A stretch of DNA of 64,000 nucleotides from an uncultured Candidatus Saccharibacteria bacterium (GTDB lineage: Bacteria > Patescibacteriota > Minisyncoccia > Phycocordibacterales > UBA2100). Each line of letters begins with the position of its first letter. Within the stretch, counting starts at the first letter, position 1. The DNA lies in NCBI GenBank assembly GCA_964512835.1, contig CAZELA010000001.1:169372-233371 (forward strand). Reading direction: 5' to 3'. The notes below the pieces were generated by a model that saw nothing but the letters and a program-made list of their open reading frames with translations, had not been told where the DNA came from and ran no database searches. This document shows positions 13,247 through 30,090 of the stretch, piece by piece. A program made the position numbers and the translations under genes.

Positions 13247-13278
13247 ACAAAAACCGGGCCACAGGCCCGGTTTTTTTA
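13247..13278 (+). terminator. Bidirectional intrinsic terminator
   Basis: aaaaaccgggccacaggcccggttttttt. Confidence 0.7.
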
Positions 13279-14310
13279 CAAACGCGGAAAAGTTAAGATA
13301 ATTCGATTGTCCGCATATTCACTCTCGCTTGATAATCGACCCGGTTCAAAGTGGACAGCCACGTTTGTAGCGTTCAGAAGTTTCCGGGCATGATACATGC
13401 CAAGCCCATTTCCTTGCCGACCCATCGAAACCGCTCTCATTCCGGAATAGCCTTTGCGAAATATTAAATCCTCTTCGCCCGGTTCTACGCCGAGACTCTT
13501 GGTTCGCATCTGAACCTTCAAGTTGGATTCCTCAAGAAAATAATCAATATAGATTTTAGATGGACGCGCGGCGTATTTATAGAGATTATGAAAAATGGGC
13601 ATCAGCCCGCCTACAAACAATTCGTAGTCGATATTTACACCCTCGTAGCACTCTGAATGGGTAATCTGAATCTCATCCTCTTCAAAAAGACCATAGTGGA
13701 TGTAAAGTAATCCTTGTATGATCGGATGAATGGATTCATGTCCAAATGATGCTATGTGCTGCTGATCGTTCAACAAGCGGATCAATTTGAAATGAGAGCT
13801 GATTATTTTGTTATTGCGTATAAGGTTCAATACACCGCTTCGAACCTCCTCAGGTCGCGCGGCAAATATTTTGGTTAGTCGGTCGCGTTGTTCCGTCGGG
13901 GTGCCCTTTAAATCATCATCTGAAATAAGCTGAAAGATTTGTTGGATATTTTTGCCGTGGAGGTCCGGTAGGTCATGTAAGGCGCTCTCAAGAATATCTG
14001 TTCGAATGGCAGCAATGTCCTTAACCAAGCTTACGCATACGTTCGTATGCAACCTGAATACGTTCGCGCTGCGCTCCAGATCAGTGCTATTGCTAACCAT
14101 GCTGATGTGAAGGGCGTCCTTCTGAATTCTTTGATAACGGCGATTGATACCGTAGAGCTTTTTTGAACCCTGACCCACTTCCAAAAGTTTCATTTCCTCA
14201 CGCAGATCGAAATAGGGACAATTAGACGCGACGATTTCACCGTCAGAAGTAAAAACGGTGTAAAAAAGAGCCGGGTCTTTAGTCGAGTTTTCGTCTAAGG
14301 TCCTCTGCAT
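13276..14310 (-). CDS. Histidine-kinase-like ATPase domain protein (no transmembrane segment)
   Basis: C-terminal HATPase_c-like G-box RQGNGLGMYHARKLL. The gene is markedly lower in GC than its surroundings. Confidence 0.5.
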   Translation of the reverse strand: MQRTLDENSTKDPALFYTVFTSDGEIVASNCPYFDLREEMKLLEVGQGSKKLYGINRRYQRIQKDALHISMVSNSTDLERSANVFRLHTNVCVSLVKDIAAIRTDILESALHDLPDLHGKNIQQIFQLISDDDLKGTPTEQRDRLTKIFAARPEEVRSGVLNLIRNNKIISSHFKLIRLLNDQQHIASFGHESIHPIIQGLLYIHYGLFEEDEIQITHSECYEGVNIDYELFVGGLMPIFHNLYKYAARPSKIYIDYFLEESNLKVQMRTKSLGVEPGEEDLIFRKGYSGMRAVSMGRQGNGLGMYHARKLLNATNVAVHFEPGRLSSESEYADNRIILTFPRL

Positions 14311-14878
14311 ACTTTATGAAATTACGCGGCTCGTCCTCCTTGTATAGCCGACCTGCAACTCGGCTCAGTACGGGATGAGTCATGTCCTGTTTAATGTCAG
14401 ATGAATACAGAACAACTGTTTTTTTTGGGTAACGATTCAATATTTCTTCAGCTAGACCCAAACCTTGGGTGATTGGCGTAAGCTTCTTTCCCACGTTATT
14501 AATATCTACAAATACAAGATCCGCATCAACAAGGGATTGCTGCGTCATGGAGTCAAGATCTGCGACGGATGCATAGCTTATCCAGGGATATTTGTCTTTG
14601 TCGGAGAGAATTTTACCGAGACTAAAACTGCGATGCTGGTCGTCAATCACCAAAATGTTAACCACGTCTTTATTCTTAGCTGCGGGCGTAGGTGTGGTTG
14701 CTGGGAGAAGGCGGTTTGTGACATTCCGCGCGGCTTCAACAATAATTGTCTTGCAACCAATGAGTATCGCAGCTACGGCAAGAACCATCAGGAGGACTAC
14801 CGCTGTCTTAAATGGGTCCGCCATTGCAAGGGCGTATAAACTCTGAATGTCAGCGGCATTCTGGGGTGAAATACTCAT
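14279..14878 (-). CDS. Membrane-anchored receiver (REC)-like domain protein
   Basis: N-terminal transmembrane helix. VNILVIDDQ...DLVFVDIN...GLGLAEEI resembles a receiver domain. Overlaps the downstream kinase-like gene. Low GC. The GCGTAGGAT promoter motif sits directly upstream. Confidence 0.45.
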   Translation of the reverse strand: MSISPQNAADIQSLYALAMADPFKTAVVLLMVLAVAAILIGCKTIIVEAARNVTNRLLPATTPTPAAKNKDVVNILVIDDQHRSFSLGKILSDKDKYPWISYASVADLDSMTQQSLVDADLVFVDINNVGKKLTPITQGLGLAEEILNRYPKKTVVLYSSDIKQDMTHPVLSRVAGRLYKEDEPRNFIKYAEDLRRKLD

Positions 14879-14927
14879 ACGTCTGAATCCTACGCCCGAA
14901 AAAGCAGATTTGGAAGGGTATCAGAAA

Positions 14928-14954
14928 GGCCGGAATCCGCAGGGGATTCCGGCC
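14928..14954 (-). terminator. Array hairpin, family GGCCGGAATCC-N5-GGATTCCGGCC
   Basis: Perfect 11-bp stem with loop GCAGG. Downstream of the minus-strand gene 14978..15232. Confidence 0.7.
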
Positions 14955-14977
14955 TATTTTTTGAGCAGCGGGGCACG

Positions 14978-15232
14978 TTACTCCGCGCGGATCTCGATTG
15001 CGCGCAGTGCTTCGGAGCCGACTTCGACCGCGAGCACGCACACGCGAATGTTCTTCGGGAGCTTGCCGTCGCGCGTCGTGTTCATGATGGGGATTCGTCC
15101 CCGTGTATCCGGACTCACGACCGCCATTCGCATATTGCTATAGGCTTCGTCGAGTCGGATCACGCCGCTTCGTCCGTCACGGCTTACCGTGAGGATATAC
15201 CCGGGCAATTGCACGGATTGCTCAGTCGTCAT
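14978..15232 (-). CDS. Hypothetical protein (84 aa)
   Basis: CGGAGGCACC ribosome-binding site. Upstream is TTGATT-N16-ACGTAGGAT. Confidence 0.5.
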   Translation of the reverse strand: MTTEQSVQLPGYILTVSRDGRSGVIRLDEAYSNMRMAVVSPDTRGRIPIMNTTRDGKLPKNIRVCVLAVEVGSEALRAIEIRAE

Positions 15233-15293
15233 GGTGCCTCCGTTGGTTGGATTTCCTGCCGCATCCTACGTGTGTCCTGCCAAAAATCAAAAG

Positions 15294-15319
15294 GCCGGAA
15301 CTCCTTGCGGAATTCCGGC
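15294..15319 (-). terminator. Array hairpin (GCCGGAAcTCC..GGAATTCCGGC)
   Basis: Hairpin followed on the minus strand by TTTTGATTTTTGG. This run is both the T-tract and the -35 box. Confidence 0.65.
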
Positions 15320-15331
15320 AGAAACGGGGGG

Positions 15332-15553
15332 TTACCCGCTCATGATTTGTGAGGGGCTGAACTCGGGTTGATCGGGCGGAAGTGCGCCGTACGTGCGCGA
15401 GGGGACGGCCGGCATGGTAATGCCCCCGTTTGCGCAGATTTCGTTCGTAACGCGCACAACGTCGTCGGCGGTCCAGCCGTTACCGACTGTTTGTGCGATC
15501 GCGCTCGGCGATAGCTGCAAAATCGATACGAATTCCAACAGTGACTTCGTCAT
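15332..15553 (-). CDS. Hypothetical protein (73 aa)
   Basis: GGGAGAT ribosome-binding site. Upstream is TTGATT-N16-GCGTAGGAT. Confidence 0.5.
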   Translation of the reverse strand: MTKSLLEFVSILQLSPSAIAQTVGNGWTADDVVRVTNEICANGGITMPAVPSRTYGALPPDQPEFSPSQIMSG

Positions 15554-15614
15554 CCCATATCTCCCTCGATGAAAGCCAGTCCGAATCCTACGCGGGTATC
15601 GCCAAAAATCAAAA

Positions 15615-15641
15615 GGCCGGAATCCGCGGAGGATTCCGGCC
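15615..15641 (-). terminator. Array hairpin GGCCGGAATCC-GCGGA-GGATTCCGGCC
   Basis: Perfect 11-bp stem. Confidence 0.7.
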
Positions 15642-15672
15642 TTCGTTGTCGACTGGTGCCGACGTGTACAGA

Positions 15673-16029
15673 TCAGGCGACGAGCGAGACCTTGGGGATC
15701 TTGATGTCGCTCTTGTCGGTGGTGAACCGCCAGGGTTCGTTCCAGTTGGCGAATCCGTTCGAGATGAAGCGATAGGTCATATCGCGGTAGTCGATCTCGG
15801 GATTCGTCTCGCGACGGTAGGTCTCGAGCGCCTGGTCCAGTTCGGGATCGAACGTCAGCCAGTTGGCCGGGTCCTTGGTGAACTCGCGGAACGCGAAGTC
15901 GGCCCGGTCGTGGATCGTGTGATCGTCACACGAAACGGTGCCGACGAGCGCGCCGTCACAATAGAATCCGACGACCGACGTGGTCGCAGACTGTCGGGTG
16001 ATAGTTGCAGTGATCAGCCACTCGCGCAT
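15673..16029 (-). CDS. Hypothetical protein (118 aa)
   Basis: CGGAGGGCACC ribosome-binding site, then ATG. Canonical promoter TTGACA-16-TATTAT upstream. The longer 295-aa ORF in the track was trimmed to this Met. Confidence 0.5.
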   Translation of the reverse strand: MREWLITATITRQSATTSVVGFYCDGALVGTVSCDDHTIHDRADFAFREFTKDPANWLTFDPELDQALETYRRETNPEIDYRDMTYRFISNGFANWNEPWRFTTDKSDIKIPKVSLVA

Positions 16030-16160
16030 GGTGCCCTCCGTTGTTGCCCTGTGTGCCGCAAACATAATACAACTCAAACCAATTGTGTCAAATACATTGA
16101 AACAAAGGAAAGACCGGAATCTAGCGATTCCGGCCTCAAGCATGTGCAGGACTGTCGTAG

Positions 16161-16604
16161 CTATCGCGCGAGCTGCAGCTCCATCAGGTGATCCTGTGTC
16201 TCGCCGAATTGCGATAGGGTGCGGAAGCCAAAGTTGCGTCGGTAGTATTCCGGTATTTTTGCCGTGAGCAGCAGCACGTCCATATCGGGATTGGTTCGGG
16301 CGTGCGCGATGATTTTCTCGAGCAGCATCTTGCCGATGCCGCGCCGCTGGAATGCGGGATCGACGTTGACCCAGAATACGTTGCCGACGGAATAATCCAT
16401 CCACGATACGATGTACCCCGCAAAGCCGAGCAATCGCCCCTTCTCGACCACTGCAAAGTACGTGGGTCGAACGACGCTCGAGCCGGTAAACATGGCCTCG
16501 AGCTCGCGGCGTGCGAGTGCGGCGTAGTGCGGGGAATAGTTCTTGGCGACGATAGCGCACGCAGCGGCGATGTCGTCCCGGCGCAGTTTACGGATATGTG
16601 CCAT
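16161..16604 (-). CDS. GNAT family N-acetyltransferase
   Basis: Acetyl-CoA binding motif QRRGIGKMLLEKII. AAGGGA ribosome-binding site. GCGTAGGAT at 16632-16640 (plus-strand complement). Confidence 0.8.
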   Translation of the reverse strand: MAHIRKLRRDDIAAACAIVAKNYSPHYAALARRELEAMFTGSSVVRPTYFAVVEKGRLLGFAGYIVSWMDYSVGNVFWVNVDPAFQRRGIGKMLLEKIIAHARTNPDMDVLLLTAKIPEYYRRNFGFRTLSQFGETQDHLMELQLAR

Positions 16605-16673
16605 GGCGGTGTCCCTTTTTGAGCCGCGGCCATCCTACGCCCGAAAAATATTTTGTGCCAGTGCAAAACAAAA

Positions 16674-16700
16674 GGGCCGGAATCCAGGGGATTCCGGCCC
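16674..16700 (-). terminator. Array hairpin GGGCCGGAATCC-agg-GGATTCCGGCCC
   Basis: 12-bp stem. Confidence 0.7.
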
Positions 16701-16721
16701 TTGTCGTTGGGTAGGAGCAGA

Positions 16722-17291
16722 TCAGATGTCGCGGCCTGCGGGTATCCAGCAGGGGCCGATGACCGGCGGCAACTGGTTGTACCACGGGTCGGGGTCGACC
16801 TGACCATCCTTGATTTCCACCTTGTACACGCGTGCTGTCGGCTTGCTCGGATCCGAGTAAAACGAAAGCTCGTTTGTGTCGAAGTCGGCCACCAGGAACG
16901 GCATCATTTGCCGATACGGTCCGCACTTGCGGAAAAACGCGAGGCCCACGTGCTCGGTCGGGTTCTCGGCTTTGCCAAAGTAGCAGCCCTGGATGTACGG
17001 ACCTTGATCGCGGGTCGGCGTACACTTGCCGTCCTTGGTATCAAATACCATGCCCGCCGGCGGCTGCCATGGGGTAACGGCTTGCGCGCGCGCCGAGGTC
17101 GAACATACGAGAAGTCCGAATCCGATCATGATCACCGCGATGCCGACGAAGAATGCGACGGCGCCGAGGTTTTGTGCGCGGCCCCAGTTGGGGAACACGC
17201 CGTCGCGGGGAACTGCGATGGGCATGAGTCCCGTGGCCATTGCTACAAACCCAATCGTAATCAGCGCGAGCTCGATCAGAACTGAGGTCAT
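16722..17291 (-). CDS. Membrane protein with a Cys-containing extracytoplasmic domain (189 aa)
   Basis: Two N-terminal transmembrane helices. AAGGAG ribosome-binding site. GCGTAGGAT promoter upstream. Confidence 0.55.
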   Translation of the reverse strand: MTSVLIELALITIGFVAMATGLMPIAVPRDGVFPNWGRAQNLGAVAFFVGIAVIMIGFGLLVCSTSARAQAVTPWQPPAGMVFDTKDGKCTPTRDQGPYIQGCYFGKAENPTEHVGLAFFRKCGPYRQMMPFLVADFDTNELSFYSDPSKPTARVYKVEIKDGQVDPDPWYNQLPPVIGPCWIPAGRDI

Positions 17292-17367
17292 TGCCTGCTC
17301 CTTTTGTCTCTATTTGCATCCTACGCTCGTTTTATAAAAATCAAAGGCGAGTAGATACATACAAAAC

Positions 17368-17395
17368 GGCCGGGTCCCCGCTAAGGGACCCGGCC
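17368..17395 (-). terminator. Array hairpin variant GGCCGGGTCCC..GGGACCCGGCC
   Basis: 11-bp stem. Confidence 0.65.
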
Positions 17396-17424
17396 ACAAG
17401 GAAAGAACTACGACGCAATACCCG

Positions 17425-17622
17425 TCATTCCAAAACGCGATGTACCAATCGCATACCGCCCCACGCAATCAGTGCAAGTGCGGCGAGAGCCGACATTACA
17501 AAAGACACACCCCAATGGATGTAGAACGTAAACGGATACCACCGGGATGTCATTACGTAGACGAGTGTCGAAAGGTAGATAACGCTCAGGGAGGGTAAAG
17601 TCTTTTGGAGAGGCACGTTCAT
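17425..17622 (-). CDS. Small membrane protein (65 aa)
   Basis: Two transmembrane segments. GAGGAG ribosome-binding site. Promoter TTGACA-18-TAAAAT and a ~75 nt leader. Confidence 0.4.
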   Translation of the reverse strand: MNVPLQKTLPSLSVIYLSTLVYVMTSRWYPFTFYIHWGVSFVMSALAALALIAWGGMRLVHRVLE

Positions 17623-17742
17623 TACAGGAATTGGCTCCTCTGTTGTTGACGGGATTGGTCTTTCAGACCAGTTGCGTATCGTACTGCATCAAATCGAAAA
17701 CATTTTTACCTATACCTGTGGACAAATGTCAAAAAAGAAAGC

Positions 17743-17771
17743 AGCCGGAATTCCGCGAGGGAATTCCGGCT
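17743..17771 (-). terminator. Array hairpin AGCCGGAATTCC..GGAATTCCGGCT
   Basis: 12-bp stem. Confidence 0.65.
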
Positions 17772-17803
17772 GATCTTATTTGCGCAGTGGTCAGTCGCAG
17801 GGC

Positions 17804-18109
17804 TTAGCCTGCGCGGCGGATACCCGCTGCCTTGCCCGTGCTCGGCGCCGGCGTCGTGCTTGCTGCACTGAACTGCTGGCGCGGCGGGGTCATGAGCGTG
17901 ATCACATTGGTCCGCACGTACTGTTCGACCGTGAGGCCGACGGATGCGGCTCTCGCCGCGAGTGCTTCCTTGTTGGCCTGTTGCCGCGCGCGTTTGCGCG
18001 ATGCGCTTTTGGCTTGACCTGCGGTCGCGTTGGAAACAACACGGGCGGTCCTACGCAAACTAGAATGTACCGACATTTGTAGTCCTTCTGAAACTGACAT
18101 GCTGTTCAT
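17804..18109 (-). CDS. Small basic protein (101 aa)
   Basis: The GCGTATAGGAT motif lies 9 nt upstream of the first ATG, so the mRNA may be leaderless or start at a later Met. Confidence 0.35.
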   Translation of the reverse strand: MNSMSVSEGLQMSVHSSLRRTARVVSNATAGQAKSASRKRARQQANKEALAARAASVGLTVEQYVRTNVITLMTPPRQQFSAASTTPAPSTGKAAGIRRAG

Positions 18110-18153
18110 GCCTCGGCTATCCTATACGCTCGTGCTTCGATTTTCAAATGTAA

Positions 18154-18183
18154 GGGCCGGAATCCGCGAGCGGATTCCGGCCC
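18154..18183 (-). terminator. Array hairpin GGGCCGGAATCCG..CGGATTCCGGCCC
   Basis: 13-bp stem. Confidence 0.7.
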
Positions 18184-18204
18184 TACTTTGCAGTCTGAGG
18201 ATTA

Positions 18205-18528
18205 TTAGGACGCGGCTTTCGATTCTGCGATGGCCTGGGTGTTGATCTCGTCGATCACATCCGAGCTCACGACGCGTGTGCACCAGAGTGCTGTCTGCGC
18301 GGCCACGAGCTTGTAGAATGCCTGGGCAAGCTTGCCGTCGTCGAGCATTGTGCCGATCTGCTCAAGCTCATACACCGCATCGCAGGCGATCTCGATCGGG
18401 TCGAACGGTGCCATGCCGGGCGCTCGCGGATTGTTCACCAGTTTCTTCGGCTGCAGTATCGCAATGCGGCTCGTATAGGCGAGTGTGGCATGGGCGGCAA
18501 AGCGGATAGCGCGTGCGTTCAGGTCCAT
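18205..18528 (-). CDS. Hypothetical protein (107 aa)
   Basis: AGGGAGA ribosome-binding site. GCGTAGGAT at 18557-18565. Confidence 0.5.
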   Translation of the reverse strand: MDLNARAIRFAAHATLAYTSRIAILQPKKLVNNPRAPGMAPFDPIEIACDAVYELEQIGTMLDDGKLAQAFYKLVAAQTALWCTRVVSSDVIDEINTQAIAESKAAS

Positions 18529-18585
18529 GGGTAGTCTCCCTATTTTTCCGGCCTGCATCCTACGCCAATCCCATACAAAATCAAA

Positions 18586-18611
18586 AGCCGGGATCGCATG
18601 GAATCCCGGCT
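18586..18611 (-). terminator. Array hairpin AGCCGGGAT..ATCCCGGCT
   Basis: 9-bp stem. Confidence 0.6.
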
Positions 18612-18630
18612 GTCGACATCGAATGTGCTG

Positions 18631-19023
18631 TTATGGGAACGGGATTGTGTCGTGACCGTCCTGCCGCTGCCAACCCGTTTGGACGATGTGTCCCACTCCG
18701 GGAAATGGTGCAGCCTCAAATCGCGCGTTCGAAAAGTTGAGGCTGATGCGGTACCGACCGTCTTCTTCTTCCAGCCCGCGATCGTAGCCGGGCATGTAGC
18801 CGTGATATTCCTTGATGATCCCGATCGTGCCGGGCTTCGGACCAAAGGTGCGGTATTTTCCGATCTCGACGCCGTCGGCGAGAATGGTCCACGCCTTTGC
18901 GTAGTCTATGTTGTAGCTACGATCGCCAACGACCGGACCGGTCACGGTAAGCACTGCTGTGCCATACCGCGCCTTCAGGAACTCGAAAAACGTTTCGGCA
19001 CCGGGGAGTGGGGAGTCTGCCAT
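18631..19023 (-). CDS. Hypothetical protein (130 aa)
   Basis: GAGGG ribosome-binding site. AT-rich promoter with an extended -10 TGTATAGA. Confidence 0.5.
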   Translation of the reverse strand: MADSPLPGAETFFEFLKARYGTAVLTVTGPVVGDRSYNIDYAKAWTILADGVEIGKYRTFGPKPGTIGIIKEYHGYMPGYDRGLEEEDGRYRISLNFSNARFEAAPFPGVGHIVQTGWQRQDGHDTIPFP

Positions 19024-19097
19024 CGTCGTACCCTCGTTTGTTTGTGCGGTCTATACAGTGCAATATTTTACACATTGAGTCAATACCTAGCAAAAGA

Positions 19098-19121
19098 GCC
19101 GGAATCCAAGGGGATTCCGGC
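19098..19121 (-). terminator. Array hairpin GCCGGAATCC-aagg-GGATTCCGGC
   Basis: 10-bp stem. Confidence 0.65.
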
Positions 19122-19179
19122 CGTTTGTGTTGATGAGACCCGTGGTAGGGAATCTGCGGCGGAGCAGTCGTTGCGCGCG

Positions 19180-19425
19180 TCAGCTCAGTGCGTCTTGATG
19201 TACTGCATAAAATTCGTACGCGTGCCTCGGGTCTTCGATCAGCTGCTTGAACTGTTCTCCGTCCTCGACAACCGTGAGCGTCGCATTGGATTCTGCCTTG
19301 CGACAGGCACAAAGCTGTTCCCGTGGTCGCAGTAGTGTGCACATGAACTCGAAGCTCTTGATCTCGCAGCAGATGCGACGCGTGCCGTCGTGTTCTTGCT
19401 GAGTGAATTTCAACTTAACCGTCAT
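19180..19425 (-). CDS. Cys-containing hypothetical protein (81 aa)
   Basis: GAGGAA ribosome-binding site. GCGTAGGAT at 19459-19467. Cys residues at ICCEIK, MCTLL and LCAC. Confidence 0.5.
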   Translation of the reverse strand: MTVKLKFTQQEHDGTRRICCEIKSFEFMCTLLRPREQLCACRKAESNATLTVVEDGEQFKQLIEDPRHAYEFYAVHQDALS

Positions 19426-23860: not shown

Positions 23861-24076
23861 TTACGCCCAGGGCGTGAGCCAGAACGCACGGTTGGTGTGC
23901 AGTCCGGCGTAGAAGCCGAGCATGGCGAGCATGCGATAGGCACGCTCGAGATCGATCCCGGGGATGCATTCCACGAATGCGCCGCCGATCATGGTGAATA
24001 GCAGCATGCACATGATCGCGCCTTTGAGCGTGATCGCACGGTCACTGTCGGTATCGCGGATCCTGAGTCCGTTCAT
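23861..24076 (-). CDS. Small membrane protein (71 aa)
   Basis: GGAGGA ribosome-binding site. Confidence 0.4.
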   Translation of the reverse strand: MNGLRIRDTDSDRAITLKGAIMCMLLFTMIGGAFVECIPGIDLERAYRMLAMLGFYAGLHTNRAFWLTPWA

Positions 24077-24132
24077 CGTGTGGTCCTCCGTTTTCCTGCG
24101 TGCAGACTACTCAAACGCGCCACAAAAGCAAA

Positions 24133-24155
24133 GCGGCCGGAGAAGCTCCGGCCGC
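24133..24155 (-). terminator. Array hairpin GCGGCCGGAG..CTCCGGCCGC
   Basis: 10-bp stem. Confidence 0.6.
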
Positions 24156-24179
24156 AGTGTTCACGAGAACAGGGAATGA

Positions 24180-24461
24180 TCAGGCCGCGAGCTTCTTCTC
24201 GGCCGTGAGCGCACGCAGCGCATCGTTCTCGACCCACGTGCCGTCGGCGCGCAACAGATCGAACTGCGCCGCGGTCACGTTGATCTCGAGGGTGATGTGC
24301 GGCACCGCGTGGTCTTCGTGGTGGTCGATGTCGACGATCGTGCAGAGGCCCACCGTGAGACCCCAGTTGTGGCCGACGGCCGGAAGGACGGGCCACTGGG
24401 TCACGCGATACAGGTAGCTGTGCTTGCCTTTGACGCTGACGGACAGCAGAAAATCGATCAT
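24180..24461 (-). CDS. Hypothetical His-rich protein (93 aa)
   Basis: GGAG ribosome-binding site. TTGACA about 60 nt upstream. Confidence 0.4.
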   Translation of the reverse strand: MIDFLLSVSVKGKHSYLYRVTQWPVLPAVGHNWGLTVGLCTIVDIDHHEDHAVPHITLEINVTAAQFDLLRADGTWVENDALRALTAEKKLAA

Positions 24462-24697
24462 GCTTTCGCTCCATTTCCAGAGGGTCGGGTGACCCTCAAA
24501 ACCGCGTATACAATGCATATAAAAACACCGTGTGTCAAGTGCCGAACGGAAGGGTGTCGCGCCCACGCGGTCTCGGACTCAGATTCACTCAATAGACCAC
24601 ATTCTGGGCGCAAATACGGGCTTTGAGAGGCTGCACACGGTAGGTCCTCCTGCGATCCGTTACAGCCCTCGAGGCGGTGGGCGGCTATAAAAGCAAG

Positions 24698-24724
24698 CGG
24701 CCGGGATTGCGAGTATCCCGGCCG
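24698..24724 (-). terminator. Array hairpin CGGCCGGGAT..ATCCCGGCCG
   Basis: 10-bp stem. Confidence 0.6.
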
Positions 24725-24735
24725 TTACATTGGTG

Positions 24736-25104
24736 CTAATCGGCGGTCCATGTCGCCCACGCGATAGCCGCAGGAGCACCATCGATTGTGAGCGAGCGGA
24801 TCTCCCAACCTTTTCTGGTATCGCGGTTGTTCGGGTTGGTGGGTTCGTATCGCGCAGCCTCGGTATATCGAACGAGTTCGCGCGCGGTATGCTCCGCTGT
24901 CATCGAAAGCGCAATCGATGCGCCGCTCGGCTCCGGCCTGACAGAGAACAGTCGTCCCGAACGCGGCGCGCCGCGAATCGGCACGTAGTACTCGAATCGG
25001 GGATTGTCACCGAGCGCATGTCGCAGCGCCTCCGCAATGTGTGAAGTTTGCGAACTTGCACCCACAGGTGTCGGGGTATTCGGCAACGCCGAGAGGTCGA
25101 TCAT
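24736..25104 (-). CDS. Hypothetical protein (122 aa), second gene of a 2-gene operon
   Basis: AAGGGAG ribosome-binding site. Start overlaps the stop of the upstream gene. Confidence 0.5.
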   Translation of the reverse strand: MIDLSALPNTPTPVGASSQTSHIAEALRHALGDNPRFEYYVPIRGAPRSGRLFSVRPEPSGASIALSMTAEHTARELVRYTEAARYEPTNPNNRDTRKGWEIRSLTIDGAPAAIAWATWTAD

Positions 25105-25427
25105 TCCGTTGCTCCCTTGGTCCGGTTCTTCGAGTGTTCGAGAGCGGTGAAGAATCCGTCACCGATGCGTTTGAGTTCCTGCCACTGCTCCTTGGTAAAC
25201 ACGAGGCCGCACACGTGCACGCCGGTCCCGGACGAAATATCGAAGGGGACGATGAACAGGTGTTGGACGTCGCCGTTGCTCGCAAGACTGCCGTCGAAGA
25301 CGATCTTTTTTCCGGTCAGGTCGAATTTCGGTTCGAGCGGCGGCGTGCTCATAAATTGGGCAAGCGCATCCTCTAGTTCGCGGGCCGCACGTGCGTCAGC
25401 GAGATTGGTCACAGTATCCTTGGTCAT
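25101..25427 (-). CDS. Hypothetical protein (108 aa)
   Basis: AAGGAGAA ribosome-binding site. Variant -10 GTGTAGGGT. Confidence 0.5.
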   Translation of the reverse strand: MTKDTVTNLADARAARELEDALAQFMSTPPLEPKFDLTGKKIVFDGSLASNGDVQHLFIVPFDISSGTGVHVCGLVFTKEQWQELKRIGDGFFTALEHSKNRTKGATE

Positions 25428-25502
25428 GGCTTCTCCTTGTTCTGCGTGCACCCTACACCGCAGCAAAAAACTGCGCCAGTGATGCCCGTTTCATCGAACA
25501 TA

Positions 25503-25512
25503 CCGTTAACGG
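25503..25512. promoter_or_regulatory. Perfect palindrome CCGTTAACGG in a divergent intergenic region
   Basis: 10-bp perfect palindrome between the 25427 (minus) and 25549 (plus) start codons. Confidence 0.35.
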
Positions 25513-25548
25513 GTGTATCGTTCACCGAGTCAACGGCAGGGAGATTCA

Positions 25549-25914
25549 ATGAGCACCGTCGCAGAAACGATCGCCGGAGCACTGCTTTCGCTTAACGGTG
25601 TTGCAATGTATGTGCCGCCACGTCAGTCACGCAAAGGGCGCAAAAACATTGCCGGATTCCGCACCGAGTGTGCGCGGTATTTCACGGTGCCGCATACGGA
25701 AGTGTTGTTCGTCACGCGCGCCTATGAACATTTTCTCGTGAGAGATATGACCGAGGCGGAGTCGGTATGGCGAACGCGCGAACTCTGGTACGTGCTGACC
25801 GTTCGGTCTGACGTGCTGAGGGTCTGCGAACAGCAGATACCTATCCGGCGCGCCGCCGAATTGAACCGATGTTCTTTTAGTTCCGACAAGGAACCTATCC
25901 GACCCGATGCGTAA
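25549..25914 (+). CDS. Hypothetical protein (121 aa), plus strand, divergent
   Basis: AGGGAGA ribosome-binding site. Confidence 0.4.
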   Translation: MSTVAETIAGALLSLNGVAMYVPPRQSRKGRKNIAGFRTECARYFTVPHTEVLFVTRAYEHFLVRDMTEAESVWRTRELWYVLTVRSDVLRVCEQQIPIRRAAELNRCSFSSDKEPIRPDA

Positions 25915-25927
25915 GCGTCGGGTCGTT

Positions 25928-26335
25928 CTACATGATGCGCGTGTCGGCCGGTGTTTTCATCCAATTATTGTGGCGACCGTCGGCATATGAGAGCGGACCC
26001 GAAACGAGCTCGTCAATCGTCGCATCATCGAGTGAATTGAGGAATATGCCCACAAACGGTCCTCCCATCCATTCGGCATCCCCGTGTTCGTGCGTATAGA
26101 CGCCGCACGTTTTGCAGAAATAACGGATCGCGGTCGGGTTCTTACCGCTGTAGCCGGTGGCATGATCGTCGCCGGAGAGGAGTTTGAATGCGGCGGGTTG
26201 TATAAACACTTTCCACGAACGGATCTTGGTGCAGTACGTGCAGTTGCACCGTCCGGTGCCTTTGGAAAGATCGATATCTGCCTGATAGGTAATGGCGCCG
26301 CAGTGACAGCTGCCGTGATAAGTTTTGGTTGCCAT
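25928..26335 (-). CDS. GFA (glutathione-dependent formaldehyde-activating / CENP-V) family protein
   Basis: HGSCHCGAITY..GRCNCTYC..CKTCGV zinc-binding Cys motifs. The start lies right after a hairpin, with TATGAT 8 nt upstream, suggesting a leaderless mRNA. Confidence 0.7.
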   Translation of the reverse strand: MATKTYHGSCHCGAITYQADIDLSKGTGRCNCTYCTKIRSWKVFIQPAAFKLLSGDDHATGYSGKNPTAIRYFCKTCGVYTHEHGDAEWMGGPFVGIFLNSLDDATIDELVSGPLSYADGRHNNWMKTPADTRIM

Positions 26336-26393
26336 AGACACATCATAACAAAACGACCCGGGCTGGTGCCGGGTCGTTGTCGTGACTGAAAGA

Positions 26394-26684
26394 TCATGCC
26401 GATGCATTCTTTTCGGCCTGCTCGCGGAGCCGTTTCCGAAAGATGCCGCGGAACATCCAGATGACGAACAGGGAGATCAGCGGGAGTGCGATGATTTTCT
26501 CGGGCTGGTTGTCGAACAAGAGCCATTGCAGGTACGCGCATACGAACACGTGTGCCGGGACGATGACGAACGGAACCTTTGAGTCGATATTGCGTGAGAA
26601 GATGGCCATCGACCAACTTACAACCGCAACAAAGGTCAGTCCGAATGCGATCATGAACACAATGTCTGCGTTTCCGTCATTCAT
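26394..26684 (-). CDS. Membrane protein (96 aa)
   Basis: GGAGG ribosome-binding site. Three transmembrane segments. Confidence 0.5.
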   Translation of the reverse strand: MNDGNADIVFMIAFGLTFVAVVSWSMAIFSRNIDSKVPFVIVPAHVFVCAYLQWLLFDNQPEKIIALPLISLFVIWMFRGIFRKRLREQAEKNASA

Positions 26685-26695
26685 TTTCGCCTCCG

Positions 26696-27015
26696 TCAGT
26701 GATCGCCGATGAGTCGGCGCAGAAGCCACATGCTTCCGAGCCATCCGATGAAGCCAACTGCGATCAAGGCCGATATTTTGACGATGATCGGGTCTGTCGA
26801 AACAAGTTCAATAATGTGATCCACGGTGCCCGCCCGAATGTTGAAAGGAGTCCGACCATACTGCCAACGAGCGTACCCGTCGCCAGCATGAATCCTCCTT
26901 GGTTGGTTCCCACGCCGATGCTTACATGCAGGATCGCCGCAATGAGAGCGCCTGCGATCATGCCGGATGCGATGCGATACGCTGCGGCAAAAACACTGAG
27001 CCGACGCTCTTCCAT
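26696..27015 (-). pseudogene. Membrane protein gene with an apparent -1/+1 frameshift near a GGGCGGG run (~26820-26835)
   Basis: Frame A reads MEERRLSVFAAAYRIASGMIAGALIAAILHVS..STFGRA. Frame C continues protein-like (GTVDHIIELVSTDPIIVKISALIAVGFIGWLGSMWLLRRLIGDH) to a stop at 26696. AAGGAG ribosome-binding site and TTGCAA-16-TAGTCT promoter upstream. Confidence 0.4.
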
Positions 27016-27160
27016 GTGCGTTTCTCCTTTCGGTAGACTACGTATGTACGAACGAATTGCAACCCATTGCGTGAGTATGACGTCGTGCTATAGAGAATAC
27101 ATGAGACACAACATTCTTGTGGTCGTCCTTCGAAGCCCGCTTGGCGAGCTGTGTTTTGGA

Positions 27161-27186
27161 TGATTCACGAGAATTCTCCGGAACAG
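27161..27186 (+). promoter_or_regulatory. Hairpin AGAGCCCGC-caca-AGCGGGCTCT plus T-tract in the 5' region of the 27230 gene
   Basis: Terminator-like structure on the plus strand ~45 nt upstream of a plus-strand start. No plus-strand gene lies upstream of it. Confidence 0.35.
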
Positions 27187-27229
27187 AGCCCGCCACAAGC
27201 GGGCTCTGTTCTTTTAACAGGAGGCGACA

Positions 27230-27502
27230 ATGGAAGAGGTATATCTGCCGCGTGTGCGGGGAGGCCAGTGGGCGGTGAGTCGTATGGTGGACGGTGCGTG
27301 GTTGGCACTCATCGAAGACCGCCCGCTCTATCACAAAGACGATGCCGTAAAAGCACTCGCCGCATGCAAGATCCCGGCAACGGACAAGAATCTGGAGCGG
27401 TATTTTCCATCGCGTCCGTTTTGCGGACGGTGTCCGACACTCGAATTTCTGGAGCTGTTCTCGAAAGTCGGGAGCGGTCAGAAAAGGGAGGTCGGCGTCT
27501 AA
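27230..27502 (+). CDS. Hypothetical protein (90 aa)
   Basis: CAGGAGG ribosome-binding site. Followed by the bidirectional terminator 27509..27536. Confidence 0.45.
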   Translation: MEEVYLPRVRGGQWAVSRMVDGAWLALIEDRPLYHKDDAVKALAACKIPATDKNLERYFPSRPFCGRCPTLEFLELFSKVGSGQKREVGV

Positions 27503-27508
27503 CAAAAA

Positions 27509-27536
27509 GTGCCGGATCCCCTGTGGGATCCGGCAC
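27509..27536. terminator. Bidirectional terminator GTGCCGGATCCC-ctgt-GGGATCCGGCAC
   Basis: A-tract on one side and T-tract on the other. Sits between convergent genes. Confidence 0.7.
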
Positions 27537-27554
27537 TCTGCGTATCGAATGAGC

Positions 27555-28295
27555 TTACGCAGCGACGGGCTCTTCCGGGACCGCGAGTTCGTTGCCGTAC
27601 TCGTCGAACCCGCGCTTCAGGATCGCGATCTGCGCACGCATGTTGATCATGCTGAAGGCGCGGTGCGTGAACTGGCTCACGAGCTTGTGCACCGGCCGGT
27701 GAACGAATTGTTCGCACTGGTCGAGCATGTGCATGATCTCGCGCGCGCGACGGATTGTTTCCTTGGTCGGAACCGGTCCGAGATACGCGGAGAGATCGTT
27801 GTTGATCCGCCCGAGCACCCAATTCGAGGCCCACTGCGATTCCGGTATACCCTCGTCGGACTTGCAAACATAGTCGCGCACGAGACCGCCGATGTACCAC
27901 GGGGCCATTTTTACGAACTCGGCATGATCCGACGAGGCGTGATCATCACACCAGAGAGCGGTACGGATGTACGCCAGAATGAGCGCGGGGTAGACCTTCC
28001 ACATTGCAAAGTGCGGCGACCCGTGTTGATTCTTGGCGATCTCCTGGAAGATCGCGTCGGGCTCGTTGATGTGACCGGTGAGCAGCGCTTCGAAGATCGA
28101 TGCGAGGTATTGCTCCTCTTTTAGAATCGAATACGTCTCGAAGCTGACGACGAGCCGCGCGCGGTCGTGCGCGTGCGCCATGCTGCCCATGATCGCGGCA
28201 ACGACGAGGTCGTGCTGCAAATCGGCATTCGGTCCTTCAAGATAGGGGTGTGCGTTGAGCAGCCGATTTACGCGCGCCGTGTGTTGAACGTCCAT
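27555..28295 (-). CDS. Hypothetical protein (246 aa)
   Basis: AAGGAGA ribosome-binding site. The ~120-nt leader carries three CCCTTTCAG direct repeats. Confidence 0.55.
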   Translation of the reverse strand: MDVQHTARVNRLLNAHPYLEGPNADLQHDLVVAAIMGSMAHAHDRARLVVSFETYSILKEEQYLASIFEALLTGHINEPDAIFQEIAKNQHGSPHFAMWKVYPALILAYIRTALWCDDHASSDHAEFVKMAPWYIGGLVRDYVCKSDEGIPESQWASNWVLGRINNDLSAYLGPVPTKETIRRAREIMHMLDQCEQFVHRPVHKLVSQFTHRAFSMINMRAQIAILKRGFDEYGNELAVPEEPVAA

Positions 28296-28414
28296 TGGAA
28301 TCTCCTTTCAGAGACGGTGTGAGCCCCTTTCAGGGCGTTTCAAGGAGCAGAGGCCCTTTCAGGCATGCCGCCAGTACTGTGCAATATTCGTATAAAAAAG
28401 CAAGTCATATAAAA

Positions 28415-28438
28415 AGGCGAGGGCCGCAAGGCCCTCGC
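28415..28438 (-). terminator. Hairpin GGCGAGGGCC-gcaa-GGCCCTCGCC
   Basis: Followed on the minus strand by a T-rich, AT-rich promoter region. Confidence 0.65.
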
Positions 28439-28456
28439 CGTTATTCGTCACAACTA

Positions 28457-28645
28457 TCAGTGCATTTGCTTCTGAGCGGCGACCTCTTCGTGGCCGCACG
28501 ATTCGCAGCGGATACAGTTGTCGTATCGCACTACTGAGCATTTACCGCACGCATCGCAGGGATCATCCAGGTACGCGTCACTCATCGCGGCGATCATCTG
28601 TGATACGGCACCCGTCGCATGGAGGCGTCGGTGCGCTTTCTTCAT
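28457..28645 (-). CDS. Zinc-ribbon protein (62 aa)
   Basis: CDACGKC...CIRCESCGHE, a 4-Cys zinc ribbon. GGAGGG ribosome-binding site. ATGA overlap with the upstream membrane gene. Confidence 0.5.
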   Translation of the reverse strand: MKKAHRRLHATGAVSQMIAAMSDAYLDDPCDACGKCSVVRYDNCIRCESCGHEEVAAQKQMH

Positions 28646-28845
28646 GGCTTCGTGGCCCTCCGGTAGTAGATGGTGGTTGCAATTCCGACCGTCATCATAA
28701 TCCCGCTCGTGAGCACACCGCATCCCAGTGATGCGAGTACGCCGACGGTAGTCGATGTGTCGATCATGGTCATGAACTTTGCCGTTGTGGCGCCCGCAAG
28801 CGCAAGCGCGACCACGGCGGTCTCGGCGGTATCGGTGATCCTCAT
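28642..28845 (-). CDS. Small membrane protein (67 aa)
   Basis: GAGAGGA ribosome-binding site. TTGCAT-17-GCGTAGGAT (28870-28878). Confidence 0.5.
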   Translation of the reverse strand: MRITDTAETAVVALALAGATTAKFMTMIDTSTTVGVLASLGCGVLTSGIMMTVGIATTIYYRRATKP

Positions 28846-28921
28846 GGCAGGTCCTCTCGTCCCGCGAAAATCCTACGCCCGAGGCGCCGGGAATGCAATC
28901 ACTCGGGGTGCGTATAGCAAA

Positions 28922-28943
28922 CGGCTCCGCGTGTGCGGAGCCG
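28922..28943 (-). terminator. Hairpin CGGCTCCGC-gtgt-GCGGAGCCG
   Basis: 9-bp stem followed by a T-rich tract on the minus strand. Confidence 0.55.
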
Positions 28944-28960
28944 GAATGCGGAATGACGGT

Positions 28961-29245
28961 TTATGCGGAAACCTGCGAACTCGTCGAATTTGAGGCTTCG
29001 TATGCGGCCTGTCGTTTGACTTCGCGTCGGTACGCGAAGGCATCAAGGTACTCGCGCACTGCCGTAGGAAGCATAGCGAGAGCTGCAATGAACAAACCGA
29101 ATGCGACGGCACTCAATATCACGACCGAGAGCGGGGCAGTGAACTGCCAGGCAAATACGGCAACCGTGACCGGCGCGGTATTCATAAAGGCAAAATCAAC
29201 TGCAAGTGCACCCACGATCATTCCGACAATGAGAAACAAGATCAT
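28961..29245 (-). CDS. Membrane protein (94 aa)
   Basis: Three transmembrane segments. No clear ribosome-binding site. A TTGACA promoter with the palindrome CGAAATATTTCG sits between -35 and -10. Confidence 0.45.
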   Translation of the reverse strand: MILFLIVGMIVGALAVDFAFMNTAPVTVAVFAWQFTAPLSVVILSAVAFGLFIAALAMLPTAVREYLDAFAYRREVKRQAAYEASNSTSSQVSA

Positions 29246-29317
29246 ACGCAGAAATGTTAGCTGCTAATCCTGAGTATGAGACGGTCCGCGGAGCCCCGGA
29301 TTTCAGGAAGATGTTAT

Positions 29318-29329
29318 CGAAATATTTCG
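29318..29329. promoter_or_regulatory. Perfect 12-bp palindrome CGAAATATTTCG
   Basis: Lies in the promoter region of the 28961..29245 gene. Confidence 0.4.
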
Positions 29330-29350
29330 CAATTTCTGTCAAATGAAAAC

Positions 29351-29371
29351 GGCTCGGGGTTCACCCGAGCC
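29351..29371 (-). terminator. Hairpin GGCTCGGG-gttca-CCCGAGCC
   Basis: Followed by GTTTTCATTTGACA on the minus strand. Confidence 0.6.
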
Positions 29372-29399
29372 GAGTACGCGTATTCATACGCAACAAGAA

Positions 29400-29624
29400 C
29401 TACTGTCCCGACTCCTGACGACGCTTCCGTTCGATACGTTGCTCGCGCCCGCTGACGACCAGCCAGATGATGAATGCGATCACGAACAGTACCGACAGAC
29501 CGACCTGCCCGAGCGGTCCGATGCCGAGTGCATGCGGCAGCGGTGACGCGGAGAACAATTCGATCAGCAGTGCCGCAATGAAGTATGACGGCAACATGTG
29601 AAGGTCTTTGGCTTTCAAAAGCAT
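29400..29624 (-). CDS. Small membrane protein (74 aa)
   Basis: AAAAGG ribosome-binding site. -10 GGTTAGGAT at 29680-29688. Confidence 0.45.
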   Translation of the reverse strand: MLLKAKDLHMLPSYFIAALLIELFSASPLPHALGIGPLGQVGLSVLFVIAFIIWLVVSGREQRIERKRRQESGQ

Positions 29625-29711
29625 CAGTGTAGTGCCTTTTCTCTTTGGTAGAGGGGAGATGGTCAAACGACCGTGGTGTATCCTAACCGATTTTTCCGCA
29701 ATGAACAGAAG

Positions 29712-29743
29712 CGGGCCGGAAATCGCTGTGGATTTCCGGCCCG
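29712..29743 (-). terminator. Array hairpin CGGGCCGGAAATC..GATTTCCGGCCCG
   Basis: 13-bp stem. Confidence 0.65.
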
Positions 29744-29757
29744 AAATGTTCACTGTG

Positions 29758-30090
29758 TCAGTTCACGACAATGCGCTGTTTGAGTCGCGCGGCGTTCATA
29801 TTGCGTTCGATGCAGATCAGCGTTGCCGCCGCATGCCCGCGACTTTTACGTGCAGCGCGATAGCGGCGTGCCGCGTAGAGGTCTCGCGCTTCCCGAAGCT
29901 CGGCCTTGAAGACGCGCACGAGGGTGTCGCTTTTCCAAGACGGATGCTGCTTGAGCAGTGAGTCGAGCTTCTGCTGCATCTCATCCAAGAGTTTGAGACG
30001 CTTCGATATGTTTCCTTTCGGGGCGGGGCGCGCGATGCGCACACTCCTGCGCCTGATCCGGTCACACATTGCCTGGATCGTTACCAGCAT
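29758..30090 (-). CDS. Basic coiled-coil protein (110 aa)
   Basis: AAAGGAA ribosome-binding site. Divergent from the helicase gene. Confidence 0.4.
   Translation of the reverse strand: MLVTIQAMCDRIRRRSVRIARPAPKGNISKRLKLLDEMQQKLDSLLKQHPSWKSDTLVRVFKAELREARDLYAARRYRAARKSRGHAAATLICIERNMNAARLKQRIVVN

Follow-up and report, generated by a model that had tools for sequence, protein, structure and literature searches.

Between the gene of the primary sigma factor SigA and that of an AddA-like helicase, the 64,000-nucleotide stretch of contig CAZELA010000001.1 analysed here (hereafter the window) carries a ~17-kb array of small genes whose intergenic joints are repeats of one another. We regard it as probable that this array is an additive, strain-variable cassette island lodged in a conserved sigA–helicase hot spot, in which promoter-coupled terminator modules double as recombination joints. 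Between close strains, cassettes are gained, lost, replaced and relocated at these joints, with crossovers inside the hairpins, and across the clade the array has expanded from 0–2 genes in distant relatives to 38 here. Both hallmarks of a genomic island are found, namely a fixed hot-spot position and a content that changes cassette by cassette with mosaic identity. An earlier note on this DNA had taken the region for a cassette array or variable island rather than ordinary chromosome, and this is borne out by the absence of the module from the flanks and by the variation in content between strains.

All coordinates are those of the window; about 80 kb of the genome was inspected, comprising the window, 10 kb downstream (L132) and 5.9 kb upstream (L216). 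The host is a bacterium of the candidate phyla radiation (CPR)/Patescibacteria, Candidatus Kaiserbacteria/Paceibacterota, and the proteins that group with the RpoC and SigA of the window carry the names Candidatus Paceibacterota or Kaiserbacteria. The whole array occupies 13249–30151 on the minus strand (16.8 kb), from the sigA terminator to the divergent promoter region that it has in common with the AddA/UvrD-like gene. Its left anchor is sigA (11925–13238, plus strand, Pfam Sigma70 r1.1 to r4), which is convergent with the array and kept in all relatives, and its right anchor is the gene of an AddA-like UvrD-helicase with a PD-(D/E)XK nuclease domain, as identified by Pfam (30195–33239, plus strand), which is divergent from the array and adjoins sigA in distant relatives. 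We count 36 minus-strand and two plus-strand genes in ~27 minus-strand transcription units (TUs). The credible genes from 13276 to 30090 all lie on the minus strand except 25549–25914 and 27230–27502, precisely as the earlier note had described, and its estimate of at least 22 independent units is also upheld. Its size range of 60–250 aa holds for most genes, yet the minus-strand products span 62–344 aa because one gene reaches 344 aa. Gene prediction by codon usage, with rpoB, rpoC, dnaG, sigA and further housekeeping genes of the window as training set, returned the same gene set. GC content is uniform at 0.54–0.60, the same as in the flanks, but falls to 0.47 at 13–15 kb. Over 7589–22602 the window is 100% identical to independent assemblies from JGI and Logan, so that the array is not an assembly artefact.

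The joints are built to a common plan. Of the 27 co-directional intergenic gaps of at least 35 nt, 26 hold a stable GC hairpin (−20 to −37 kcal/mol) with a T-rich tail behind it, and a terminator scan of the array returns 37 sites, compared with 17.9 ± 4.6 for shuffled sequence. The stems are perfect, 8–14 bp long, with loops of 3–8 nt; 18 of the 26 are in a GCCGG(A/G)..CCGGC register, and the other eight are unrelated to this family. Outside the array, the window has nine hairpin terminators, none of them in this register, in agreement with the earlier description of their stems as unrelated. Alignment of the 18 family hairpins shows that the five core pairs (GCCGG/CCGGC) are invariant or nearly so, while inner and outer pairs covary, and compensatory changes on both sides are seen in seven of the 12 predicted stem pairs. 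An Rfam search of 7–31 kb at E ≤ 1 gave two chance-level matches only and no family. The palindrome GCCGGAATCC-N3-7-GGATTCCGGC (20 bases) has, among the matches listed, single occurrences in Streptomyces and many other genomes. Two CCGG tetranucleotides lie inside the invariant GCCGG/CCGGC core of each family hairpin (window 14927–29743) and would be potential targets for restriction-modification or methylation.

The promoter half of the module is equally repetitive. TAGGAT occurs as a −10-like box in 13 of the 27 units, 24–47 nt after the hairpin and 6–45 nt before the start codon, usually with a GGAGG-type ribosome-binding site downstream, after an A-rich stretch. Eleven of these 13 boxes read CGTAGGAT, a motif with 11 copies, all on the minus strand and all in the array, where 1.67 are expected and none of 100 shuffles reaches 11; the exact motif GCGTAGGAT has 10 copies, all on the minus strand, from 14887 to 28878. 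In the modules of the window, TTGATT lies within the T-tract, 16 nt upstream of TAGGAT. The claim that the T-tract doubles as the −35 box is thus consistent with the window, whereas in related species a separate TTGGACA or TAGGCA box lies downstream of the tail. The module families are the largest direct-repeat families of the 64-kb window (D1–D4, D7, D9, D15), and their similarity continues through spacers and leaders (D2, D9). The earlier note had assigned the composite module to nearly every unit, which is too strong; the full module precedes only about half of the units, concentrated at 14.9–22.6 kb, and the remaining ones have unrelated stems or other promoters, e.g., TTGACA-16-TATTAT or TTGACA-17-TAATAT.

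The module has no copy in ~63 kb of same-genome flanks (47 kb of remaining window, 10 kb of L132 and 5.9 kb of L216), so that it does not act as a default terminator and promoter beside the housekeeping genes there. Its restriction to the array, as first proposed, is true of the whole and not of every part, since the rpoC terminator outside the array, too, is trailed by the tail TTTGATTTTG (7581–7604), and a GGCCGG..CCGGCC base recurs in one outside terminator (L216 1527–1553). An alternative sigma factor acting on the GCGTAGGAT and GCCGGAATCC motifs is disfavoured, because the motifs are missing from the flanks and no second sigma gene was seen in the window, and an uptake signal resembling the DNA uptake sequence (DUS) is disfavoured by the same absence from the flanks.

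How the array changes can be seen from a sister strain, GCA_964633425.1, a metagenome-assembled genome (MAG) in which the locus falls on two contigs, L126 and L127, each ending inside the array. Nucleotide identity between the strains is ~93% for dnaG and sigA and 88.7% for the helicase gene. Against this background the locus differs by whole cassettes, and strict synteny is not observed. In L126, the promoter at window 21905–21913 and the 133-aa gene are separated by an additional gene of 132 aa, whose product is unrelated to that of the latter; where the window has the 95-aa gene and its TAAGGT promoter (TU15), the sister strain has a GCGTAGGAT promoter and an unrelated gene of 74 aa; the units of 73 aa (TU25), 130 aa (TU18) and 189 aa (TU22) are absent from the contigs recovered. 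The 65-aa unit (TU21) has moved, in that L127 12881–13178 corresponds to window 17396–17696 but follows the 81-aa gene. The sister strain also has a PRA-PH gene of 106 aa that the window lacks and, behind the GNAT gene, an additional ORF of 58 aa. Three-way alignments reveal that L127 has one joint where the window has two around the missing unit, and that this joint is a chimera of both, switching from one to the other within the hairpin or module. For TU18 the crossover lies inside the hairpin; TU25 is bracketed in the window by ~63-nt direct repeats that are 82% identical (15259–15319 and 15581–15640), and L127 has one chimeric module in their place. All ten hairpins in a 10.6-kb collinear stretch are conserved one-to-one, and the hairpin after the HExxH gene shows compensatory substitutions between the strains, which argues that the stem is kept as a structure.

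Sequence identity across the array is mosaic. Several genes are 99–100% identical in nucleotide sequence, above the core genes, and others are only 78–85% identical with dS up to 1.2, indicating frequent recombination. Segments of 99–100% identity (window 7676–8221, 9284–9769, 21966–24461 and 29400–30090), set against 89–93% for the core, point to recent exchange of accessory segments between lineages. Replacement also affects the sigA-proximal end, where the low-GC pair 13276–14878 is swapped in the sister strain for a 481-aa ATPase and four small ORFs (L127 6381–9985). In the window, PADLOC assigns 14279–14878 to PDC-M43A (3.7e-31) and 13276–14310 to PDC-M43B (4.7e-46), a candidate defence system, with no other match among the 38 array genes, and the sister 481-aa protein matches OLD, AriA and GajA-type ATPase models. 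Judging from these profile matches, the sigA-proximal slot appears to hold swappable anti-phage defence genes.

The gene order rpoB-rpoC-(small plus-strand genes)-dnaG-sigA, minus-strand small genes, helicase-HSP20-PrsW-aminoacyl-tRNA synthetase-TsaD is kept in four further genomes or contigs with SigA at 82–94% identity. In the closer relatives, two to 21 small genes, mostly on the minus strand, lie between sigA and the helicase gene (seven genes on 2.8 kb in L134 and 19 on 9.1 kb in L131; the arrays of L130 and L128 measure ~9 kb and >10 kb), and the 38 genes of this genome form the largest of the arrays compared. Among 80 metagenome loci, those of distant relatives (SigA ~70–75% identical) with a helicase gene found mostly have a sigA–helicase gap of 28–2000 bp, reaching 5.7 kb in L172. 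Although SigA is 91–94% identical between species, only LapA (72–76%), YdeI (61–64%), the HExxH protein (23–43%) and few others remain recognisable, and their order is shuffled in L131; the variability across relatives that the earlier note had asked about is therefore evident, few of the 38 proteins being common to related species. Some cassettes specific to the sister strain have homologs of 55–58% identity in the arrays of other species.

The relatives' arrays follow the same plan in different words. TAGGAT occurs 5–7 times per 10 kb on their array strand versus 0–1 times on the opposite strand, and both its flanking motifs and the stem sequences are specific to each species: L128 repeats the motif CTRGCGAATCTTCATTTTGAGGCGTAGGATTT with stems GCCGGGTCC, and the L138 module reads CCGGCCGTTTGATTTTG...TTTGGACAAA...TATAGGAT. 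Such species-specific variants indicate concerted evolution of the joints within each genome. The arrays of related species also contain another repeated element of ~30 nt, CTATTCGCYTATTCGCGCGAATTAGARAATAG, with a perfect 12-bp palindrome ATTCGCGCGAAT, which is absent from the window and the sister strain (L128 13408–16304, L140 6886–10781 and L163 3200–4624; also L130, L137, L138, L143 and L147). This element looks like an operator and is frequently positioned beside promoters or at divergent gene starts.

We propose that each cassette would constitute an autonomous expression unit, with a sigma-70-type promoter whose −10 box is usually TAGGAT preceded by GCG and whose −35-like TTGAYT lies in, or right after, the T-tract of the preceding terminator. 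An A-rich leader of ~25–35 nt with GGAGG would come next, then between one and four small ORFs, and lastly a GC hairpin that, with its T-tract, probably serves as intrinsic terminator. The joints would then be promoter-coupled terminators, paralogous to one another, whose hairpins are expected to terminate and whose TAGGAT boxes are expected to initiate transcription. Through their short homology or their secondary structure, these repeats may promote RecA-dependent recombination, gene conversion or slippage during replication, and the recombining DNA was probably exchanged between related cells. With a built-in promoter and terminator, a captured ORF could be expressed while its neighbours stay undisturbed.

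Several points weigh against this proposal. Since viable changes in content need breakpoints between genes, junctions in intergenic regions are partly expected anyway, and what counts for the argument is therefore that the junctions are built as chimeric repeats. At some of them the identity extends over only ~25–45 nt, a short tract for RecA-dependent recombination, and the original placement of unrelated ORFs between homologous modules calls for more than homologous exchange. A scan with the E. coli consensus finds 13 promoters against 9.8 expected, i.e., no enrichment, as TAGGAT agrees with TATAAT at only four of six positions and such a scan is unsuited to boxes of this type. Some of the sister-strain rearrangements could be assembly chimeras, since MAG contigs break inside the array, whereas the novel genes cannot be. 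It is also possible that other arrays or a dedicated recombinase lie beyond the ~80 kb inspected (largest contig 565 kb).

The array shares much of its logic with (super)integrons, in which attC sites are imperfect palindromes of 57–141 nt with bulges and R'' RYYYAAC and R' GTTRRRY cores, the cassettes are promoterless and served by a common Pc promoter, and IntI may be absent in clusters of attC sites lacking integron-integrases (CALINs). Here, too, small, unrelated, co-oriented ORFs are each followed by a hairpin repeat that is homogeneous within the species, as in the Vibrio VCR arrays, and content and order vary between strains. Hairpin-dependent, site-specific capture by a functional analogue of the integron, with GCCGG..CCGGC as the site of a recombinase encoded elsewhere and the terminator and promoter roles secondary, would account for the crossovers inside hairpins, the cassette that moved in the sister strain, the five invariant stem pairs next to covarying ones and the identical tracts that are short for RecA. 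However, no integrase, transposase or HUH enzyme is found among the scanned ORFs of the 64 kb, eight of the 26 array hairpins are outside the family, the 132-aa gene of L126 is inserted behind a promoter, ahead of the next gene, and not at a hairpin, the multi-switch chimeric junctions resemble gene conversion, and the stem drifts by compensatory change between strains; we consider such an analogue distinctly unlikely. Membership in the integrons proper, which a superintegron likeness might have implied, fails because no IntI is found among the scanned ORFs of the 64 kb, attC-type R''/R' cores are lacking (no R''..R' pair in the array on either strand, 2.2 in shuffles) and the cassettes have promoters of their own, as predicted from sequence, with 27-nt perfect hairpins. 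Chromosomal (super)integron cassette arrays and CALINs are reportedly treated by Mazel (2006) and by Cury et al. (2016). That the GCCGG..CCGGC hairpins are recombination sites of an unrecognised CPR cassette-capture system, with the recombinase elsewhere or with hairpin-targeted processing of DNA from neighbouring cells, and with every cassette contributing or acquiring a promoter-coupled terminator, is in our estimate unlikely.

Equally improbable is that this is ordinary chromosome, in which the joints resemble one another because a compact genome selects for consensus promoters and efficient terminators, unrelated insertions and deletions produce the differences in content, and the modules have no part in rearrangement. 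TAGGAT does fit the TAnnnT −10 of the genome, the rpoC tail TTTGATTTTG and the outside terminator with a GGCCGG base show similar parts elsewhere, and promoter–terminator coupling is widespread in bacteria; yet convergence leaves the similar spacers, loop-flanking bases and leaders (D2, D9) unexplained, as it does the species-specific variants, the module-free 63-kb flanks and the chimeric junctions inside repeats. Repeats of the repetitive extragenic palindrome (REP), bacterial interspersed mosaic element (BIME) or miniature inverted-repeat transposable element (MITE) type, driven by a REP-associated tyrosine transposase (RAYT) or another transposase and colonising gene 3' ends here, would also be short, multi-copy, species-specific palindromes at 3' ends. 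REP/BIME, Neisseria DUS inverted-repeat terminators and Correia elements, of which the last may carry promoters, are dispersed genome-wide in hundreds of copies. The hairpins described here resemble them in being species-specific palindromes at gene 3' ends that would be able to terminate transcription, and differ in being confined to one 17-kb locus in the ~80 kb inspected. A GTAG/GTGG head is present in only one of 18 copies, no RAYT or other transposase is seen in the window, the 63-kb flanks hold no copy, the hairpins correspond one-to-one between strains over 10.6 kb with no sign of independent insertion, and neither terminal inverted repeats nor target duplications are found beyond the hairpin. 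A mobile-repeat origin is thus very unlikely, and the description of a REP-punctuated island is not supported by the DNA inspected. A degraded prophage or phage-derived region of morons or early genes scarcely deserves credence and was rejected: morons are indeed promoter–ORF–terminator units, the array genes are small and obscure, and defence genes stand at one end, whereas GC and codon usage match the host, no integrase, structural or replication genes are present, the few PHROG matches are of the type expected from generic ATPase and acetyltransferase members, three viral-contig scans gave no match, and the chromosomal hot spot is conserved with graded size across the clade.

Additive flexible genomic islands and insertion hot spots are known from Alteromonas and other aquatic bacteria (PMC4898812, PMC4033161). 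The present locus is like them in its fixed site between core genes, cassette-wise variation, mosaic identity, accessory and defence cargo and host-like composition; unlike them, it consists of single small-ORF units with standardised, paralogous terminator–promoter–leader joints and crossovers within the joints, has no associated tRNA gene, integrase or mobile element, and belongs to a CPR host (largest contig 565 kb). Promoter-coupled terminators, in which the promoter of the second of two tandem genes immediately follows an intrinsic terminator and terminator DNA (the T-tract) contributes to it, have been described recently (bioRxiv 10.64898/2026.08.19.745784). The distance from termination to start predicted here, ~27–50 nt, is near the ≤35-bp class of that paper; in contrast to the paper's examples, many sequence-related copies would occur in one island and the −35 box would overlap the T-tract rather than the stem. 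The sigA-proximal slot, with PDC-M43 here and an OLD/AriA-like ATPase in the sister strain, recalls defence islands. However, two of the 38 genes match PADLOC, the others being small membrane or soluble proteins without a defence signature, and the enrichment that characterises defence islands is not found. Arrays of this type in CPR bacteria did not turn up in searches of the literature.

The cargo is diverse. All-against-all BLASTP of the 38 proteins finds one paralog pair, 20424–20669 and 20131–20394, at 54% identity, and the modules form repeat families, so that the array genes are mutually unrelated and the joints related. Pooled dN/dS against the sister strain is 0.21 for array genes and 0.03 for flanking housekeeping genes, indicating that the array ORFs are real genes subject to purifying selection, under weaker constraint than the flanks. 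The only Pfam domains in the array are LapA_dom, GFA, OmdA with DUF1905, DUF167 and GNAT, which confirms the identities given earlier to the GNAT protein (Acetyltransf_1), the GFA protein and the YggU/YdeI pair (DUF167 and OmdA/DUF1905). Zn_ribbon_8, Fervidolysin_NPro-like and HATPase_c matches are below curated thresholds. The proposed zinc ribbon protein accordingly remains a weak assignment, and the two proposed I9-like proteins are paralogs, as stated, with an I9-like similarity (E ~1e-3) that is under the cut-off. The putative secreted HExxH protease has a HEIGH motif and a signal-like N-terminus and no Pfam match. A word-index search of 5.8e9 proteins gives its sister-strain copy as sole match, and tblastn detects relatives of 23–43% identity in neighbouring species, so that this apparent ORFan is fast-diverging and lineage-restricted, not unique. 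The 246-aa protein (27555–28295) has 15 relatives among 1.84e9 representatives and a confident, all-helical predicted model whose structural neighbours are uninformative. At least one hydrophobic helix is predicted in 12 of the 38 products. Pfam searches of all array ORFs and the scanned window ORFs (mostly at least 100 aa) detect no integrase, recombinase, transposase, HUH enzyme, RAYT or second sigma factor, and the suggestion that a RAYT, integrase or alternative sigma factor acts on the module finds no candidate among them. Collectively, the cargo comprises lineage-restricted small proteins, about one third of them predicted membrane proteins, with few recognisable enzymes, and may have an accessory role in the envelope, host interaction or defence.

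The individual units, numbered from the helicase end, are given here from the sigA end with their predicted promoters and terminators, all on the minus strand unless stated otherwise. TU27 (13249–14892; GC 0.47) contains the 199-aa (14279–14878) and 344-aa (13276–14310) genes and ends at a bidirectional terminator (13249–13275); its −10 box GCGTAGGAT at 14887–14895, 8 nt upstream of the ATG, makes it look leaderless. Composite modules precede TU26 (14927–15268; −10 at 15263–15268; 84-aa gene 14978–15232; hairpin 14927–14955) and TU25 (15294–15590; −10 at 15585–15590; 73-aa gene 15332–15553; hairpin 15294–15319), and TU24 (15613–16091) has a TTGACA-16-TATTAT promoter (16064–16091), a 118-aa gene (15673–16029) and a hairpin at 15613–15643. 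The module recurs in TU23 (16110–16637; −10 at 16632–16637), which encodes the GNAT acetyltransferase (16161–16604; Acetyltransf_1, 4.9e-12) before the hairpin 16110–16137, and in TU22 (16672–17323; −10 at 17318–17323), with a 189-aa membrane protein (16722–17291) and hairpin 16672–16702. TU21 (17368–17735), with a TTGACA-type promoter and a leader of ~80 nt, encodes a 65-aa membrane protein (17425–17622; hairpin 17368–17395), and TU20 (17742–18124; −10 TAGGAT at 18119–18124) a 101-aa basic protein (17804–18109; hairpin 17742–17772). TU19 (18152–18562) again has the composite module (−10 at 18557–18562), a 107-aa gene (18205–18528) and hairpin 18152–18183; TU18 (18586–19093) comprises a 130-aa gene (18631–19023) and hairpin 18586–18611. 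Two further composite modules drive TU17 (19097–19464; −10 at 19459–19464; 81-aa gene 19180–19425; hairpin 19097–19122) and the four-gene operon TU16 (19487–20701; −10 at 20696–20701; hairpin 19487–19513), in which the two paralogs are followed by a 109-aa membrane protein (19805–20134) and an 89-aa protein (19532–19801). TU15 (20721–21417), with the −10 box TAAGGT at 21412–21417, holds a 95-aa gene (21097–21384) and the gene of a 102-aa membrane protein (20771–21079; hairpin 20721–20754), and TU14 (21439–21910) a composite module (−10 at 21905–21910) with a 133-aa gene (21475–21876; hairpin 21439–21468).

TU13 (21934–22580) has TTGACA-16-TAGGAT at 22553–22580 and encodes the 186-aa HEIGH protein (21966–22526; hairpin 21934–21961); TU12 (22588–23027) has TTGACA-17-TAATAT at 22999–23027 and a 106-aa membrane protein (22639–22959; hairpin 22588–22612). 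In TU11 (23035–23795), the YdeI/OmdA-DUF1905 (23283–23780) and DUF167/YggU (23062–23280) genes are followed by a weak hairpin only, and TACGAT 6 nt upstream of the GTG start makes the unit look leaderless. TU10 (23813–24110) encodes a 71-aa membrane protein (23861–24076; hairpin 23813–23836), and TU9 (24133–24540), with a TTGACA-type promoter, a 93-aa protein (24180–24461; hairpin 24133–24155). Upstream of the latter gene the intergenic stretch is unusually long at 274 nt and contains (24560–24700, minus strand) a possible GTG-started mini-ORF of 18 codons and a TTGACA-type promoter. TU8 (24698–25460; −10 TAGGGT) contains 108-aa (25101–25427) and 122-aa (24736–25104) genes before hairpin 24698–24724. 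The plus-strand 121-aa ORF (25549–25914), 71% identical in amino acids to its sister-strain copy, converges with TU7 (25900–26347) on the bidirectional hairpin 25900–25925; TU7 encodes the GFA-domain protein (25928–26335; Pfam GFA, 3.1e-12) and likewise looks leaderless, with TATGAT at 26342–26347, 6 nt upstream of the ATG. TU6 (26352–27100) encodes membrane proteins of 83 aa (26764–27015) and 96 aa (26394–26684) and ends at hairpin 26352–26378. The plus-strand 90-aa ORF (27230–27502) is preceded by a plus-strand hairpin at ~27190–27215 and converges on the bidirectional hairpin 27508–27537 that ends TU5 (27508–28410), the unit of the 246-aa all-helical protein. Within a 214-nt gap (27038–27230) between the 83-aa gene and this 90-aa ORF, the upstream hairpin and a TTTT after it immediately precede the ribosome-binding site of the ORF; the hairpin may be an attenuator or mark where a small plus-strand RNA ends. 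TU4 (28416–28875; −10 GCGTAGGAT at 28870–28878) encodes a 67-aa membrane protein (28642–28845) and a 62-aa Cys-rich protein (28457–28645; hairpin 28416–28439), TU3 (28922–29345) the LapA_dom membrane protein (28961–29245; Pfam 1.5e-13; hairpin 28922–28943), TU2 (29350–29685; −10 TAGGAT at 29680–29685) a 74-aa membrane protein (29400–29624; hairpin 29350–29372), and TU1 (29712–30151; TTGTCA-16-TATGGT at 30124–30151) a 110-aa basic protein (29758–30090; hairpin 29712–29743).

Two observations concern the surroundings of the array. Outside it, TAnnnT boxes (TACACT, TACCAT, TATAAT, TATAGT, TATACT) lie 6–8 nt upstream of the ATG of many housekeeping genes, with no Shine-Dalgarno site (gene starts 30195, 35591, 42143, 45050, 46380, 52250 and 62696), a pattern that suggests that leaderless mRNAs are widespread in this genome. 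The earlier portrayal of housekeeping promoters as TATAAT-like gives way to this arrangement, and most array genes differ from it in having leaders with GGAGG Shine-Dalgarno sites. A second, smaller variable region lies between rpoC and dnaG (7238–9960, plus strand), with seven small genes without Pfam domains, each having a hairpin terminator of its own (7581, 8228, 9194, 9970). The first of these genes (107 aa) gives way in the sister strain to an unrelated one of 103 aa, which brings a separate promoter of the TTGACA type, and related species have quite different genes there, e.g., uppS in L128.

CPR/Patescibacteria have tiny genomes with a large share of small genes of obscure function, whose acquisition and turnover are poorly understood. 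The locus described here is a conserved slot beside the primary sigma factor gene that holds anything from nothing to 38 genes within one clade and is reshuffled cassette by cassette. What is unusual about it relative to known flexible islands is the standardised build; its logic is that of an integron, without integron membership. The island would show how promoter-coupled terminators can serve in nature as modular "plug-and-play" parts, and it yields a short list of fast-turnover small proteins and defence genes as candidates for host or phage interaction. If the capture-system reading were true, ultra-small episymbionts would have a dedicated, expandable locus in which to try foreign or newly arisen small genes. 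As an additive cassette island, the array offers a testable model of how streamlined symbionts may maintain a flexible gene pool without recognisable mobile elements.

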